Below, in pieces: positions 1 through 15,073 of a stretch of DNA of 34,415 nt. The notes under the pieces were generated by a model. It did no database searches. It saw only the letters and a program-made list of their open reading frames with translations, and was not told the DNA's origin. The position numbers were made by a program, and so were the translations under genes. This DNA comes from a virus (Duplodnaviria; Heunggongvirae; Uroviricota; Caudoviricetes): IMG/VR virus record IMGVR_UViG_2740892426_000006. The stretch is one strand, 5' to 3'. Every line of letters begins with the position of its first letter. The first letter of the stretch is position 1.

Positions 1-1164
1 TTACGCCTTCTTTATATCCTCCATAATTCCACAGTGGGACATATTTGGGACATTATCACCAAAAATGTCGTCTATTTTCCTTGCATGCTCTGTCAAATGA
101 TTAGGCGCAAGGTGAGCATACCTACGAATCATTTCTATGGACTCCCATCCGCCCATTTCCTGAAGCACAGATAATGGGACGCCTGACTGGATCAGCCAGC
201 TTGCCCAGGTGTGTCTGAGGTCATGGAAACGGAAATCTTCAATTCCTGCACGACGACAAGCTGATAGCCATGATGTCTTGCTGTCGATGCGCATCTTCCT
301 GACCGCAGGCGTTGATGTTCCATCTGCTCGCTTAGCCGCCTTGGTATGTACAAACACCCATTTGTGATGCTTGCCTATTTGATCACGCAACACTTTACAG
401 GCGGTATCGTTCAGCGCCACACCAATGGCGCGGTTTGATTTGCTCTCTTCTGGATTCACCCAGGCAACTCGTCGCTGCATGTCGATTTGTTGCCATTCCA
501 GATTTATGATGTTCGACTTTCTCAGACCAGTTGCCAGCGCAAACTTGACGACAGATTTCAGTGGTTCGGGGCACTCATCAATAAGGCGTTTTGCTTCCTC
601 CTTTTCCAGCCATCTGACTCGCTTGTTTCTGACCGCTGGTATCTTGATGACAGGCGCTTTTTCCAGCCACTTCCAGTCGCGTTCTGCAGCACGGAGAATG
701 GCCTTTATCATGGCAAGATGCTTTGCCTTTGTCTGAGTTGATACTGGCTTTGGTTCATAAACAGGCGGTTCTTTACCTTTCCTGATGGCGGCCTGAACTT
801 TCTGTTTCCATATTTCTTTCGTCTTTCTGTTATGCATTCTGCTTACAGCAGAGTAAATCTTTGCCTCCGAGATATCTTTAAGCCTTATACCCTCAAAATG
901 TTCAAGCCAGAACTCAATCCGGCTTTTATCTGAATCGAGAGATTTTTTATCAGCTTTTTCCTCAAGCCATCTTAGGCAGGCCTCTTCAAAAGTGACATCA
1001 GGTAAATCCCCTAGCTTTTCTACTCGCCAGAGTTCTGCTTTTCGCTTGTCGTGCAACTCCTGAGCTTGCCGCTTGTCCTTTGTGCCAAGAGATTCCTTAA
1101 TTCGTTTCCCGCCCGGGAGCGAATACGAGGCATACCATATTTCATTTCTGCGGAAGAGTGACAT
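1..1164 (-). CDS. int: tyrosine-type site-specific integrase
   Basis: 387-aa ORF; C-terminal HDLRHTWAS and RRYAHL motifs typical of the tyrosine recombinase catalytic region; stop codon is at the window edge (1-3). Confidence 0.9.
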
Positions 1165-2585: not shown

Positions 2586-2712
2586 TTTGTTCTCCACGTA
2601 TATGCACTGCACCGCGCTGAATTCTGGTAAAAGGAAGCCCTCACCATCCGGTGATTATTGAGTTAATTACGTTTCCATAAATGCCCCCGCAGGGGCATTT
2701 GCAGTAATGAAA

Positions 2713-3537
2713 TCAGGCGGTGAAAGTACCAATAAAGGTTTCTACTTTGCTGTCTTTGAATTTCTCAACAAGCAGATCACGAAATTCGTTAGCCATTTCT
2801 TCCTGCACCGCTTCCAGCTGAATAATGCGCAGAACCAGTACAGGACGATCGCCAGTGATAATGCTGAGGCGTAATTTAAACGGACGTTCTTTCAGACCTT
2901 CAAACGGAACGCATTTAAATTCAAATGCCACTGGCATAATGTCTTTGGTCTTCGCTTCGACAGACTCCATCAGGGAGCGTTTGCCGCTGAAGTCATTATC
3001 TTCAAAATCAGCGGTCTGGTTTGCTTCAATCGTGATTTTACGGACTGCCGCAGCCGCTTTTGTTGCTTGAATGGCGTCACCATTAGCATCAAAGCCCACA
3101 AGGTAGTCGGCCCAGTCTTCGATCCATTCTGCCAGTGACTTCTGGGAGTTACGCTCGCCGTTAACAGACAACAGAGCAGAGAACGGTGCTGTCTTTTTCA
3201 GTTTGAGAGTGGCAGTGTTATCTGCGTGACCTGGCTCATCAATAGTACCCAGGTTAAGCACACTGACGGCACGCATATTATCGGCATCGATAAAGCAGCG
3301 GGTGCCTTCATCTGCAAGATCTTTAGAATAACGGGTAAAATCATCGATGCTGGCAGTGGAAAGTGCACCACGGAAACGGAAGCGATTTAAATTAAATTTT
3401 TCCAGATCATGAATGCGGAAATTCTCAGGCAATGCCACAGCATCGGCACCAATCTTACTGATAATTTCATTAACACTCTGAGCAGAAATAAGGGCATGGA
3501 TTTGATTAATTGCGGTTGCGTCTAAGTTCTGAGACAT
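2713..3537 (-). CDS. conserved phage protein, 274 aa (YfdQ-like)
   Basis: Long clean ORF with a GAGGA-like Shine-Dalgarno; length and neighbourhood match my recollection of E. coli CPS-53 YfdQ. Confidence 0.55.
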
Positions 3538-3602: not shown

Positions 3603-3965
3603 TTAACGACCTGCTGCGCGGAGTTTTCCGTCAGGTTCACCGGCAAGAGTCAGTAATTGTCCCTGGTCTTCCTGCAGAATAGTCAGGCGACCACCGCGAT
3701 TGACATACATCGGCGTTTCGGTGGTGTCTTCTTCGGAAATTTTCCCGCGGTTAGTTGGGCGAACATATGAGAGTTTGTGTTTGATTTTCACACGGTTCTC
3801 ATCAAACGGTTCGATTTCCAGATTGAGTGAGACCTTCCCTTTGGTTTTCGTGTTCATCACACCGGAAGCGACCTCACTGAGAACTGCGCCGATTTTGGTT
3901 TCAAATACGCCGCCGTCCAGCTCCCCGATAAATGCCTGCACATCAGTACTGCGTTCGCTAGCCAT
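3603..3965 (-). CDS. hypothetical early-left protein, 120 aa (YfdP-sized)
   Basis: Start set at the ATG (3963-3965) preceded by GAGGAG. The track ORF extends upstream into low-complexity sequence that I treat as non-coding. Confidence 0.5.
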   Translation of the reverse strand: MASERSTDVQAFIGELDGGVFETKIGAVLSEVASGVMNTKTKGKVSLNLEIEPFDENRVKIKHKLSYVRPTNRGKISEEDTTETPMYVNRGGRLTILQEDQGQLLTLAGEPDGKLRAAGR

Positions 3966-4435
3966 TTTGCTGCTCCTCATCATATCGACCCTGCAAGGTC
4001 GGTTGGTTTCTCCACAAAACAGAGAAGAACACCTGCGGTGGCAGCCGCCCGGATGGATTGGGTTATGAGCCCGTCGTCCGGTGATGCTCTTCTCTGTTTT
4101 GCAAAAAAGGACGGTACCAGCCGGAAGCAAGGGTACAAACTGGTACCGCCAGGACTACACACAGCATAAAGTTGTGGTGCCGGGTGCCTCCCGGTGCCTG
4201 GCGAAGGTTGCACACCAGGCGGGTGGGTATCCACAGAAGGTCGACTGTCAGCCTCAACCTTAACCCGCGTGCGCTGAGCCGCATTCACCACAACGCTAAG
4301 GATTCTCTCTGGTTGAAAATACTTAGCTGTTATGTGCCTGCTTTTAGCCACATCAGGCGAGGTGGACCTGGTTATTCCCCAACAACAAGGATTCGGTTAA
4401 TCTGGATATCCCCAACAACAATAAGAGTATTCAAT

Positions 4436-4951
4436 GTGATCGCTGAATTAACGGCAGCAATGACGGCTATTCGTGAAACAGCCCAGATTGCAAAACTAAT
4501 GAACGAGGCAAAAACTCAAGCTGAAGTAAATGCGGCTATTGGTGAGCTGAACTCAAAGCTTGCGTCTATTCAGCGCGAATGCGTGTCTCTCGTTGAACTG
4601 GTGGGCTCTTATCAAGAAATAAATGCTTCTCTCAAAGCTAAAATTGCAGAATTCGAAAACTTTGAGGCTCAGACGGAAGGCTATATCCTTAACCAACTTG
4701 AGTCGGGTACTTTTGTATACTCGAAGGAGGTAATCGTGAACGGTGGCAGCATAACCATGCATCTTTGCCCAAAATGTTTTGGACAAAAGATAGTATCGAT
4801 ACTTCAACCATTCCCGGTTAGCGAAGATGAGCTTTTTCATAAAAGCAGGTGCCTCCACTGTGAAAATAAGTTTCTGATGAATAAAAATCCGGATTACGTA
4901 TCGCCTCCATCCATTGAGGAGTTGTCCAGAAAACTTAACGGCAATCTGTAG
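4436..4951 (+). CDS. coiled-coil protein with C-terminal CxxC-x24-CxxC zinc ribbon, unknown function
   Basis: GTG at 4436 (AAGAG 8 nt upstream) or ATG at 4460. About 80 aa of A/E/K/L-rich predicted coiled coil, then HLCPKCFGQ...RCLHCENKF. Followed by a terminator. The track ORF upstream of 4436 is R-rich low complexity. Confidence 0.5.
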   Translation: MIAELTAAMTAIRETAQIAKLMNEAKTQAEVNAAIGELNSKLASIQRECVSLVELVGSYQEINASLKAKIAEFENFEAQTEGYILNQLESGTFVYSKEVIVNGGSITMHLCPKCFGQKIVSILQPFPVSEDELFHKSRCLHCENKFLMNKNPDYVSPPSIEELSRKLNGNL

Positions 4952-4990
4952 ATTACTACTGTTGTGGATATCCAGATTGTTAAAGAGCTA

Positions 4991-5013
4991 AGCGTCCTGT
5001 AGGGCGCTTTTTT
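4991..5013 (+). terminator. rho-independent terminator after the 4436-4951 ORF
   Basis: Hairpin agcgtcc-tgta-gggcgct followed by a run of six T. Confidence 0.5.
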
Positions 5014-5096: not shown

Positions 5097-5125
5097 AATC
5101 TAACTTAACTTAGTTATTATGGCAA
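5097..5125 (-). promoter_or_regulatory. candidate leftward promoter (pL-like) with embedded operator-like palindrome
   Basis: On the minus strand: TTGCCA, 17-nt spacer, TAGATT. The spacer contains CTAACTTAACTTAG, which resembles the palindromes in the cI-cro intergenic region. Confidence 0.3.
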
Positions 5126-5178: not shown

Positions 5179-5805
5179 TTAGAGTTCGTATTGAACTCCT
5201 TTGACTACACCAATGATAAGGCAATTACCATTGATAGGGATGTTGGGATACCGAGGATTTAATGGCACTAAAAACTTTTGAGGGCCATCGATGACTAATT
5301 TTTTTACTGTAGCTTCGTTTGTTCCATCAAGTCGAGCGATGACTATTTTTCCATGACGAGGTTCTGCATCTGGATCTACAATCACTGTTGCGCCTTCTGG
5401 TATTGTTGGGAGGCCATTAGGGTTAGTCATGGAGTCACCTTTAACCTCTAATGCAAATGAGTTATCACCAATCTTTAATGATGTATCTACCCACTTGTCC
5501 ACTTCACTAAACACTTCTGCTGCCCTGCACTCAGTAAACTGCCCAGCCTGAACCCACGATATTACAGGAACTCTGCGCATGTTTGTGACGAGTTTGCCTT
5601 CAAACTCAGCACCATAAAGAATGTAATCTATTGACGTATTGAAGAACTTCGCTAATTTCGAAAGTGCCTCCCCACCAGGGGTATTGATGTCTTTCTCCCA
5701 GTACCCCACAGCAACGTCGCTTACTCCACAAAATTTACCCAATTCTTTCTGGGACGTTCCGGTAACTCTTCTCAGAGCTTTTATACGCTGACCAACCGTT
5801 TCCAT
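5179..5805 (-). CDS. cI: CI-type prophage repressor (HTH plus LexA-like S24 autopeptidase domain)
   Basis: 208 aa; N-terminal HTH (SQKELGKFCGVSDVAVGYWE); C-terminal S24-like region with GDSM motif and a downstream K; divergent from cro. Confidence 0.85.
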   Translation of the reverse strand: METVGQRIKALRRVTGTSQKELGKFCGVSDVAVGYWEKDINTPGGEALSKLAKFFNTSIDYILYGAEFEGKLVTNMRRVPVISWVQAGQFTECRAAEVFSEVDKWVDTSLKIGDNSFALEVKGDSMTNPNGLPTIPEGATVIVDPDAEPRHGKIVIARLDGTNEATVKKLVIDGPQKFLVPLNPRYPNIPINGNCLIIGVVKGVQYEL

Positions 5806-5825: not shown

Positions 5826-5890
5826 TGCTAAGTAATCTTAGTTTTTATTGACCAAAGATAGATTTGTAATTAGCATCTAATAAAAATTAG
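5826..5890. promoter_or_regulatory. operator/promoter region between cI and cro (oR, pRM, pR)
   Basis: Three palindromes built from TTAG/CTAA half-sites: CTAAGtaatCTTAG (5828-5841), ATTAGcatCTAAT (5869-5881), CTAATaaaaATTAG (5877-5890). Confidence 0.45.
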
Positions 5891-5902: not shown

Positions 5903-6103
5903 ATGACAACTGACGATATCGAAAGCTACTTCGGCAGTATTGAGAAAGTTGCTGCTTTTTTCGGCATAACAACTGAAGCCGTTTATCAGTGGCGAAACCG
6001 TCCGGGCCAGTTAATTCCAAAAGGACGTGCAGCAGAAGCTGCATATAGAACTTGCGGACGGTTGCCATTTAAACCTGAGCTTTATGAAAAATCTAATGGA
6101 TAA
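5903..6103 (+). CDS. cro: Cro-like small HTH regulator
   Basis: 66 aa, GGAGGG Shine-Dalgarno, divergent from cI; the segment FGITTEAVYQWRN resembles a Cro-type HTH. Confidence 0.65.
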   Translation: MTTDDIESYFGSIEKVAAFFGITTEAVYQWRNRPGQLIPKGRAAEAAYRTCGRLPFKPELYEKSNG

Positions 6104-11020: not shown

Positions 11021-11773
11021 ATGAACCTTGAAGCCTTACCAAAATATTACTCCCCAAAATCTCCAAAATTGAGCGATGACGCACCGGCGACAGGCTCAGG
11101 TGGTTTAACGATTACGGATGTGATGGCTGCGCAGGGGATGGTGCAGTCGAAAGCACCGCTTGGGTTTGCCTTATTCCTGGCAAAAGTTGGTGTTCAGGAT
11201 CCTCAGTTTGCGATTGAAGGTCTGCTCAATTACGCGATGGCAATGGATAACCCGACATTGAACAAATTGAGTGAAGAAACCCGGTTACAGATCATCCCTT
11301 ACCTTGTGAGTTTTGCCTTTGCTGATTATTCCAGGTCTGCGGCAAGTAAGGCTCGCTGTGAGCATTGTGCTGGTACTGGATTTCATAGTGTATTGCGCGA
11401 AGTGGTGAAACACTCCAGAAGCGGGGAATCTGTTATCAAGGAAGAGTGGGTGAAGGAATTATGTCAGCATTGCCATGGTAAGGGAGAAGTCAGCACGGCT
11501 TGCAGAGGGTGTAAGGGTAAAGGCATTGTCCTGGATGAAAAAAGAACCCGGCTTCATGGCGCGCCTGTTTATAAGATTTGTGGGCGTTGCAATGGAAACC
11601 GGTTTAGTCGTTTACCGACCACACTGGCACGACGTCATGTCCAGAAGCTGGTACCAGACCTGACTGATTATCAGTGGTACAAAGGATATGCAGACGTCAT
11701 TGATAAACTGGTAACAAAGTGCTGGCAGGAAGAAGCATTCGCTGAAGCACAATTGAGAAAGGTGACGAGATAA
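11021..11773 (+). CDS. Q: late-gene antiterminator Q (QuuQ-type, 250 aa)
   Basis: 250 aa with Cys/His clusters (CEHCAGTG, CQHCHGKG, CRGCKGKG, CGRCNG); followed by a promoter/terminator module. Confidence 0.7.
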   Translation: MNLEALPKYYSPKSPKLSDDAPATGSGGLTITDVMAAQGMVQSKAPLGFALFLAKVGVQDPQFAIEGLLNYAMAMDNPTLNKLSEETRLQIIPYLVSFAFADYSRSAASKARCEHCAGTGFHSVLREVVKHSRSGESVIKEEWVKELCQHCHGKGEVSTACRGCKGKGIVLDEKRTRLHGAPVYKICGRCNGNRFSRLPTTLARRHVQKLVPDLTDYQWYKGYADVIDKLVTKCWQEEAFAEAQLRKVTR

Positions 11774-14046: not shown

Positions 14047-14288
14047 ATTAATTCAATTATTGGTGGGATGTCTGTGCCGTATAATGATTACAGATACAGT
14101 GTATCCTGCAATGCAGCAGGGCTGATGTGGTGGGTTGTACATAGCCTGCAAAGGATTGGCTTCATTAATTCATCGTTGATACAAGCGAGTCACGGTTGAC
14201 CACGCCAACGGCTCATCGGTAAAAATCCGACACCGTGTCTTCTTAACTCACTTATTGTTTCCACCCATGTTTTTGGATACCTGCTGTA

Positions 14289-14326: not shown

Positions 14327-14617
14327 ACAACGAATCCTTCTGATCTGCTTTCGCGGGGCTTTTTTGTATCCGCTCCATGCCCGGCGTATAAGCGGAGGTT
14401 GGTCAGTTTTCTAAAAATTGAAATACCTCACAATTCAGCCAGTTAATGGTTGTTTGTCTGGCGAAGAGTTTGTAAATAAAAAAACGCATGGTGAATCCCC
14501 CTAAGCGGCGGGGCGAATCAGCAGTCAGTTCTGGGATAATCGCGGGTTCGTATGCTGATGCCGGACTCACCGGGAGGCACCCGGCACCATGCATCATGGT
14601 CATCCCCTTGTATGATA

Positions 14618-14642
14618 CCCCTCTCCGGAGGGGTATTTTTTG
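14618..14642 (+). terminator. rho-independent terminator
   Basis: cccctc-tccg-gagggg hairpin followed by tattttttgg. Confidence 0.45.
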
Positions 14643-15073
14643 GATAAAAAAGCCCGCGCTGGGAGGCACGGGCGGCAAGGAATAAAACGTGAAGAAATTT
14701 TCACAGGCGCATAATAATCCGATGTTGCCAGATTTTGCAACTGCATCATCTGGTTATTATGTGAGCTGGAAAATCAGATTCTGTATGGACTGAAGCCATG
14801 CTGTTATTTAGGGCCAAAGAGCTGGCTTTTTCCCGCCTTCTCTCCAGTAACGATTAATGAGAAAAGAATGAAATGCTTTTCCTGGGGAGGAGGGCAGTAG
14901 AAAAAAGAACCCGCCAGCAAAAATATGGGGGATGAACAGCTTTTGCTACTCAGGTTGCTGGCGGGTATGGTTCTTCATGAAATAAGAATGTTACGCGGTA
15001 TTTTTAATGAAAATGATAATTATTGTCAATTGGTTGTGCGTATTTTTTCATACATGACTGGTAAAGGTGATTC

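Follow-up and report, generated by a model that had tools for sequence, protein, structure and literature searches.

The 34,415-nucleotide (nt) stretch of viral DNA analysed here as a whole (the window; IMG/VR record IMGVR_UViG_2740892426_000006, Caudoviricetes) is a lambdoid (pro)phage whose left arm is identical to that of Escherichia phage PhiR49_1. Between the start codon of yfdP and the open reading frame (ORF) at 4436-4951 it carries a block of 470 nt (3966-4435) that an earlier note, made from the letters alone, had put forward as a candidate structured RNA. This proposal was borne out on the minus strand by a strand-specific fold, an Rfam match and base-pair covariation: the block encodes a leftward structured small-RNA (sRNA) gene, and the sRNA is a divergent member of the prophage family STnc100 (Rfam RF02076)/PasD/sRNA-17. 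The strand and the roles suggested in the note were mostly wrong, and what it had treated as a single block comprises at least four things: the core of the sRNA, with a region of repeats and promoter upstream and, downstream, its terminator and then another hairpin that resembles a tRNA anticodon arm. The features of the block are as follows.

4376-4424: direct repeats of tccccaacaacaa, within two units of about 22 nt, TTGTTGTTGGGGA(T/A)AWCCAG
4296-4375, minus strand: upstream region, with a motif of about 47 nt, ACCACCUCGCCUGAUGUGGCUAAAAGCAGGCACAUAAC (4375-4329), then a hairpin CUAAG...CUUAG (4326-4296)
4295 to about 4103, minus strand: predicted mature sRNA of 193 nt, made up of core, linker and terminator
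4171-4294, minus strand: structured core of 124 nt, defined by the sub-threshold Rfam match, covariance model R1, covariation and minimum-free-energy folds
4294-4286 (GUUGUGGUG) with 4179-4171 (CACCACAAC), minus strand: closing helix P1 of 9 base pairs (bp)
J1/2, between P1 and P2: AAU
4282-4267, minus strand: P2, with A4270 bulged
4261-4255, minus strand: pseudoknot strand S1, AAGGUUG
4254-4221, minus strand: variable hairpins
4220-4196, minus strand: P4, whose loop CAACCUU (4210-4204) pairs with S1
4194-4180, minus strand: P5, CCGGG-AGGCA-CCCGG, abutting the 3' strand of P1
4170-4149, minus strand: single-stranded linker of 22 nt, UUUAUGCUGUGUGUAGUCCUGG
4103-4150, minus strand: intrinsic terminator with an 11-bp stem (4150-4140/4120-4110), a 19-nt loop and U6 (4108-4103)
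4015-4101, minus strand: second long hairpin between the terminator and yfdP, with an outer stem of about 24 bp and ending in UUUUG

The short repeats from which the earlier note had argued are present in the block. The 14-nt inverted repeat caaaacagagaaga/tcttctctgttttg lies at 4015-4028 and 4088-4101 and extends to arms of 24 nt with 83% complementarity, the 9-bp stem cggtaccag/ctggtaccg lies at 4112-4120 and 4140-4148, the ccggg/cccgg and cctgg/ccagg stems fall between about 4180 and 4220, and two exact copies of tccccaacaacaa occupy 4376-4388 and 4409-4421. To assign a strand, the segment 4095-4330 was folded in both orientations. The minus strand gave a fold z of -3.57, with none of 200 shuffles as good, whereas the plus strand (z = -0.98) folded no better than its shuffles. 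For the hairpin 4101-4015 the fold z was -5.3. A search against Rfam returned a minus-strand STnc100 match at 4324-4101, covering model positions 1-206 with 40.3 bits and an E value of 3.4e-7; this falls short of the STnc100 gathering score of 47 bits and was found by a permissive search. Covariance model R1, built from an alignment of 39 representatives, scored the window element at 90.8 bits (E 3e-27). The element has the features of the broad STnc100/PasD structure, including P1, GGUGAAU, a P2 loop with ..GCG.., P4, the invariant P5 CCGGGAGGCACCCGG and a terminator whose stem matches the Rfam STnc100 terminator helix and is kept in e14, mEp460 and SfV. Across the 39 representatives, GGUGAAU and the P5 CCGGGAGGCACCCGG that abuts the P1 3' strand are invariant and the region between P2 and P4 is variable. 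A pattern scan of IMG/VR recovered 145 such elements with 87 distinct cores.

Covariation was then examined across the family, and P1, P2 and P4 were found to covary with the structure kept. In 100 distinct sequences, which all come from Enterobacterales, 90.5% of the cells are paired versus 39-47% when the partners are slid, and 17 pairs show changes on both sides, including all 7 pairs of P4; this alignment was fitted to the model and is hence biased toward the structure. In an unfitted MAFFT alignment, covariation is already visible in P1 and P2. Between left-type and STnc100-type elements, P2 differs by three compensatory pair swaps (GCGGC/GC-CGC versus CCCCC/GG-GGG). In nearly all representatives the P4 loop complements the strand immediately 3' of P2, with widely differing sequences: AAGGUUG/CAACCUU in the window element, AUCAGCA/UGCUGAU in the late copy of the window, and AGACUGACAAA/UUUGUCAGUCU, ACUGGUGG/CCGCCAGU and others elsewhere. 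Because register shifts between subfamilies spoil the columns of a single MAFFT or covariance-model alignment, this pseudoknot was tested free of alignment, and its complementarity averaged 6.8 nt versus 4.7 nt for cross-paired strands, a value reached by 0 of 2000 permutations. The covarying pseudoknot is absent from Rfam and from published models and is new here.

The loops of P2 and P5 also change together in some members. In the sRNA-17 subtype (L131, 2870-2885 and 2782-2798, minus strand) GCUGAU in the P2 loop and AUCAGC in the P5 loop form a perfect 6-nt complement, and the common subtype would allow pairing between the invariant GC of its P2 loop and the GC of its P5 loop. A variant at L027 (3364-3485) has both loops altered together, and its P5 carries a GAAA tetraloop of the GNRA type. 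This co-change hints at a tertiary contact like that between the D loop and the T loop.

At the yfdP locus a sister variant, sRNA-17, is already characterised. It is a 193-nt RNA established by rapid amplification of cDNA ends (RACE) at the 5' and 3' ends and by northern blotting in the mEp460-type prophage of E. coli K1 RS218 (PMC7719688). Its 5' end lies at C-GUUGUGGUGAAUGCGCAGG, 1 nt before P1 (RACE primers, PMC7719688 Suppl. Table S2), the U tract of the terminator GGCGGUACCAG...CUGGUACCGC contains its 3' end (primers, PMC7719688), and the published primers map to homologous positions of the mEp460 copy. The predicted ends of the window RNA are placed by homology to sRNA-17, and its 5' end may arise by processing or as a primary start near 4322 or 4295. 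When the full 193 nt are compared, the two RNAs have in common only P1, GGUGAAU and the terminator region, and BLAST homology to mEp460-type phages ends at window position 4151. In the RS218 lysogen sRNA-17 is expressed and yfdP has only 0.49 reads; once a resistance cassette had been put in place of sRNA-17, yfdP stood at 47 reads (about 95-fold higher) and yfdR had gone from 0 to 8.5 (PMC7719688, Table 1). The authors reported no Rfam relative and classed partial BLAST matches as 'degenerative' copies (PMC7719688), and sequences like the window element appear to be listed among these. PasD1 and PasD2 of enteropathogenic E. coli are validated by northern blotting, are Hfq-dependent in their stability and have partners identified by ligating and then sequencing interacting RNAs (RIL-seq) (PMC8550237). 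PasD and STnc100 have been reported to be related, with sRNA-17 unmentioned (bioRxiv 10.64898/2026.05.13.724894). We found the link between sRNA-17 and STnc100/PasD in none of the papers on these RNAs that were accessible to our search; joining them as one structural family is new here.

The genes around the block and the further family copy of the window are listed below.

1-1164, minus strand: int, distal to yfdP-yfdQ-yfdR-... in the early-left operon
3603-3965, minus strand: yfdP, the first early-left gene, downstream of the sRNA terminator (annotation of identical DNA; PHROG 204)
4436-4951, plus strand: ORF with a GTG start, belonging to a real phage protein family (phrog_1244)
5179-5805, minus strand: cI of the immunity region, with cro starting at 5903 on the plus strand
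11021-11773: Q, identified by PF03589 and phrog_127
14457-14645, plus strand: canonical STnc100 paralogue in the late region, after Q plus two inserted genes and before the holin gene

The late copy scores 114.5 bits with Rfam STnc100, against the gathering score of 47, and 97 bits with R1. Late-type copies in general have Q or a methylase gene upstream and a holin or esterase gene downstream; the element of the block is instead placed between the immunity region and yfdP, and it is the single family copy in the early region of the window. About 230 nt upstream of the canonical late copy, a degenerate family member was seen at 14084-14245 (plus strand; 15.5 bits, E 0.005, a weak match), with P1 ACAGUGU/ACACCGUGU, P2 CCUGC/GCAGG and P5 UCGG-UAAAAAU-CCGA, so that the late region holds a tandem pair. 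A weak R1 match at 2597-2717 (minus strand) was set aside as a merely terminator-like hairpin. The product of ORF 4436-4951 has a coiled coil plus C-terminal Cys pairs, and the ORF has its own terminator downstream (4990-5009). Immediately left of cI lies a candidate pL, TTGCCA-17-TAGATT (5097-5125, minus strand), which holds a CTAACTTAACTTAG palindrome (5100-5113) like the CTAAGTAATCTTAG in the cI-cro interval (5829-5842); if this is pL, its transcripts cross ORF 4436-4951 antisense before reaching the sRNA.

Upstream of the core, the motif ACCACCUCGCCUGAUGUGGCUAAAAGCAGGCACAUAAC is also found in SfV, e14, phiES15 and sal3 despite different neighbours, once per phage. Among these carriers the repressor genes differ in at least some, and the distance from the motif to P1 varies. 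The motif may serve as a promoter together with a site for a binding factor, or as an RNA leader element. Candidate -10 elements were noted at 4334-4329 (CATAAC) and 4307-4302 (GAGAAT); both are weak sigma-70 candidates and neither is convincing. By inspection, a sigma-54 or CRP reading of the motif has unsuitable spacing, and a nutL/nutR-like pairing was rejected on its single occurrence in the window and in each of the eight examined loci that carry it. The direct repeats at 4376-4424, outside the RNA, probably belong to a divergent promoter region as sites for recombination or for a regulator to bind. Their right-hand unit (4399-4424) recurs in inverted form at 4953-4978 (26 nt, 85% complementary); this 26-nt inverted repeat flanks ORF 4436-4951 and contains the palindrome TGGATATCCA, and a second upstream unit lies at 4364-4390. 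The same units stand in front of a different divergent gene at loci L045, L059 and L115. The repeats around the ORF may be operator-like sites or a cassette boundary.

The second hairpin differs from its ST64B counterpart by one compensatory change, and at L026 a homologous hairpin stands directly 5' of a core. Its inner arm, CGGGCUCAUAACCC (4073-4060, minus strand), exactly reproduces the initiator tRNA-fMet anticodon stem-loop of E. coli, a sequence checked in 5426 of 5426 E. coli genomes. The identity spans three G-C pairs and the CAU anticodon and lies about 95 nt upstream of the yfdP start. The initiator-anticodon arm is kept with variations in ST64B (CUCAUUA) and L026, and in e14 it carries mutations. 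The arm may be a remnant of a tRNA gene or act as a functional mimic, and the hairpin as a whole may be a back-up terminator or a 5'-untranslated-region element of yfdP.

The element heads a leftward operon in ST64B, 118970_sal3, phiES15, SfV, mEp460 and e14. ST64B and 118970_sal3 are Salmonella phages, the copy of Cronobacter phiES15 precedes kil-gam, and the copy of K-12 e14 precedes xisE-intE. In the P1-like SJ46 (L009, 2551-3932) it lies between tRNA-Asn/Thr and tciABC, and a gene for a DnaB-like helicase follows farther downstream. Of 5426 complete E. coli genomes, 1844 contain the left-type core, normally annotated as a hypothetical protein; the element is absent from CPS-53 of K-12. A pattern scan of genome contigs yields many chance matches in high-GC genomes, and a covariance-model filter was applied. 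Matches that passed it are confined to Enterobacterales (Escherichia, Salmonella, Klebsiella, Kosakonia, Pantoea, Erwinia, Citrobacter and Superficieibacter), apart from a single match on a 388-bp contig labelled Prolixibacteraceae that is probably contamination. In e14 of K-12 W3110 (L253, 2501-2821), a 97.9% identical copy lies between ymfJ/ymfI and xisE-intE and is annotated as YmfH. With 1 nt missing from the invariant P5 loop and a G replaced by A in the P5 stem, this copy looks decayed; the ymfH coding sequence (CDS) is probably spurious. Searches of the literature on ymfH, and on ST64B together with sRNAs, found nothing relevant.

Some members stand in tandem arrays of 3-6 cores, as on plasmid pAPP145_2 of Pantoea sp. 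App145 (L210, 943-1998; L186, 3109-4495), in Superficieibacter (L206, L199) and in IMG/VR (L018, L077, L040, L028). The arrays are of two types, one with units about 250 nt apart that each have their own terminator, the other with back-to-back cores separated by gaps of only about 15-25 nt and without a terminator; in some terminator-less cores the otherwise invariant GGUG/CACC of P1 is swapped for other pairs. Members often follow phage tRNA clusters at a distance of about 100 nt, in the same orientation, for example at L018 and in SJ46, and at L027, L049, L068 and L088 tRNA-Met/Arg/Arg are followed by family elements. In sal3 a fragment like a tRNA T arm, GGTTCGATTCCAG, lies upstream of the element. 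The tandem arrays, the adjacency to tRNA genes and the decayed YmfH copy are new here.

We consider it likely that the block gives rise to a terminated leftward sRNA of about 193 nt, of the STnc100/PasD/sRNA-17 family, whose terminator insulates the early-left operon. The nascent RNA would fold into a five-helix pseudoknotted core closed by P1, followed by the linker and the intrinsic terminator with U6. Termination would free a stable sRNA and halt transcription ahead of yfdP-yfdQ-yfdR-...-int, with the hairpin 4101-4015 as a possible back-up to the sRNA terminator, and the early-left operon would then be expressed solely via read-through of the terminator. A linker followed by a terminator with a U tract is the usual 3' module of Hfq-dependent sRNAs, and by analogy the sRNA is probably Hfq-dependent and would bind Hfq and base-pair with mRNAs in trans. 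A scan for promoters between the terminator and yfdP detected none, and early-left transcription must therefore read through the terminator and the long hairpin. The RS218 data, in which sRNA-17 is detectable at about 0.5 reads of yfdP and its replacement raises yfdP, fit this picture of a gate. In lambdoid phages the logic of pR'-tR', a terminated leader plus read-through, is established, and in lysogens the RNA that results from termination can function as an sRNA. Late family copies occupy the position of the pR'-tR' leader and the left element carries an intrinsic terminator, and we therefore read the latter as an sRNA gene with an insulating terminator. Q is unlikely to be the read-through factor for the left copy, because the identical left element is accompanied in PhiR49_1 by a different Q, of the QuuD type, and that phage lacks a late copy. 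A dependence of the left copy on Q was also set aside on comparison by eye of the promoter regions of the two window copies, which lack similarity.

Several points weigh against the terminated, insulating sRNA. The rise of yfdP in RS218 need not mean that a gate was lost and could stem from cassette read-through, as the replacement construct kept the terminator and the cassette promoter was probably directed toward yfdP. The discrete 193-nt transcript belongs to the sister variant sRNA-17, and the window RNA is a prediction from sequence; the interior of its core is strongly unlike that of sRNA-17, R1 scores only 22 bits on the mEp460 copy, and the linker, the would-be 'seed', differs between the two variants at the yfdP locus. 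A consensus scan found no strong sigma-70 promoter directly upstream of the sRNA, which may instead be processed from a longer pL transcript. Finally, a simple base-pairing sRNA needs no 124-nt core with a conserved pseudoknot and invariant loops, and it leaves the back-to-back terminator-less arrays of cores unexplained; the complex core and the arrays therefore suggest that trans-acting seed pairing is probably not the whole function. Less likely, though worth keeping in mind, the conserved, cloverleaf-like core common to sRNA-17, STnc100 and PasD does more than stabilise the 5' part of a base-pairing sRNA and is itself the functional module, either a tRNA-like or a protein-, RNA polymerase- or RNase-binding fold that serves as a regulated read-through gate or as a decoy or processing signal, which phages would put at the start of operons under antitermination control (both early-left and late), beside tRNA genes and in arrays.

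Other explanations of the block were weighed against the terminated sRNA. That the block is protein-coding ('YmfH' or other hypothetical proteins), or forms the 5' leader or an N-terminal extension of the plus-strand gene 4436-4951, is hardly credible. Mechanical ORFs of 123 amino acids (3980-4351, minus strand) and 259 amino acids (plus strand) run over the block, and public records annotate hypothetical CDSs or pseudogenes there, so that the term 'ORF-free' used in the earlier note fails if taken literally; in the sense of non-coding it holds. No open frame is conserved across diverged homologues, a Pfam search gave no match, and one annotated CDS is labelled a frameshifted pseudogene by the Prokaryotic Genome Annotation Pipeline (PGAP). 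Among 19 distinct near-identical copies there is no period-3 bias (variable sites by codon position 22/25/20), and variable sites per 100 nt number 4.1 in the core versus 16-35 in the linker, terminator and second hairpin. Neither a codon-like substitution pattern nor a conserved intact ORF, either of which would have spoken against an RNA, was thus seen in the homologues, and base pairs covary. An N-terminal extension would lie outside the phrog_1244 family, since the PHROG 1244 match starts at residue 5 of the product read from the GTG at 4436. The suggestion of a leader or riboregulator for that gene fails because the structure is on the opposite strand, the plus-strand fold being no better than shuffles, and because the element is kept beside different or absent rightward genes, as in SfV, ST64B, phiES15, mEp460 and e14. 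An RNA-plus-protein module finds no support, as no conserved protein partner flanks the family, and the note was correct that no reverse transcriptase or transposase is adjacent. The remaining role it had suggested, protein-independent antitermination, is right as to position at the head of the leftward operon and as to the missing N system: no boxA (YGCTCTTWA) occurs anywhere in the window, no N-like family was found in the six left-operon ORFs scanned (small ORFs were not covered), and a lambda-type combination of nut and N was not recognised. In a put-like version of this idea, the core would bind the transcribing RNA polymerase and read through left-operon terminators without a protein factor. 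It would suit a promoter-proximal element in phages without a detected N gene or boxA, with paralogues heading the late operon, a complex conserved fold with invariant nucleotides, and terminators immediately following the core as they do putL. We nevertheless regard it as very unlikely. R1 finds nothing in the HK022 pL/putL and pR/putR regions (loci L004 and L005) even at E <= 10, and no obvious sequence similarity or Rfam-level similarity to the HK022 put regions was seen. The put element is about 70 nt with two stem-loops (PMC9378689), as against a 124-nt five-helix pseudoknotted core, and the paired putL/putR arrangement was not found. Members of the family accumulate as RNAs ended at their own terminator (PMC7719688, PMC8550237), and the expression of sRNA-17 with yfdP at about 0 reads in the RS218 lysogen speaks against constitutive self-readthrough (PMC7719688).

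Two further readings start from the fold itself. A P1-closed multi-helix junction with a pseudoknot, placed directly upstream of an intrinsic terminator and an operon and furnished with invariant junction and loop nucleotides, could be a regulated attenuator, in which an aptamer-like sensor of a small ligand, host factor or phage protein decides whether the adjacent terminator forms; this would tie early-left (and late) expression to the state of the cell or to a phage antiterminator, and some agent must permit read-through on induction. We think this improbable: no conserved alternative (antiterminator) pairing joins the P1 3' strand or the linker with the terminator, linker and terminator sequences vary freely, cores lie back-to-back in arrays with no terminators between them, no conserved protein partner is encoded nearby, and the same left-hand element co-occurs with two unrelated Q types. 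A shade more doubtful is a cloverleaf mimic with P1 as acceptor, P2 as D arm and P5 as T arm, processed or serving as a decoy for tRNA-recognising enzymes or defence nucleases, with the sRNA properties secondary. The 5' end of sRNA-17 at the base of P1, the abutment of P5 on the P1 3' strand as a T arm abuts the acceptor stem, the P2 and P5 loops that change jointly (GCUGAU/AUCAGC in mEp460, GNRA in L027), the neighbouring hairpin with an exact initiator-tRNA anticodon stem-loop, and the elements that directly follow same-strand phage tRNA arrays or stand in tRNA-style tandem arrays of up to 5-6 units would all accord with it. The support is, however, positional and by analogy: none of the tRNA-like families of Rfam matches, neither a T-loop nor a D-loop consensus is present, P1 is not followed by a 3' CCA, the P5 loop has 5 nt, and ARAGORN calls no tRNA or transfer-messenger RNA in the whole window, as the earlier note had also judged for the block.

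The terminated sRNA thus remains the preferred reading, and it has consequences for annotation and for phage control. An RNA gene replaces annotations as spurious proteins or as "empty" DNA, including ymfH in e14 of K-12; sRNA-17, STnc100 and PasD are joined as one structural family confined to phages of Enterobacterales; and an sRNA terminator acting as a gate would offer a simple control logic for the integrase- and excisionase-containing left operon of lambdoid phages without N. The window element itself is an ordinary family member, and the residual novelty lies in the conserved core, whose complexity, together with the arrays and the association with tRNA genes, makes the family a reasonable structural and mechanistic target.

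Compared with known systems, the element shares with STnc100 and PasD a core with GGUGAAU, a P2 loop CUNNGCG, the invariant ACCGGGAGGCACCCGGCACC, P1, P4 and P5, followed by a terminator; it differs from them in its Rfam score below gathering, in the P2 swaps and in its place at the head of the early-left operon instead of the interval between Q and the lysis genes. With sRNA-17 it shares its strand and its place between yfdP and the immunity region, the length of 193 nt from the position before P1 to the U tract (window 4295-4103), an identical P1 (GUUGUGGUG/CACCACAAC) and GGUGAAU, a nearly identical terminator and downstream hairpin and, in the mEp460 copy, the same global fold, a P1-closed multi-helix core with P5 abutting the P1 3' strand. 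Unlike the window element, sRNA-17 has a P2 of GCGC..GCGC with the loop AGGCUGAU, a P5 of CCGG-AGAUCAGCA-CCGG and a different linker. HK022 putL and putR (about 70 nt, two stem-loops and a triplex; PMC9378689) resemble it as promoter-proximal structured RNAs that head an early operon in a lambdoid phage not using N, but they form a pair, whereas the element has a single copy near the early region and none downstream of pR. The leader RNAs of pR'-tR', such as lambda 6S RNA and StxS, are likewise short, promoter-proximal and terminated, and the operon behind them needs read-through; they have no sequence relationship to the element, and for the left copy neither a Q-like antiterminator nor a clear promoter was found.

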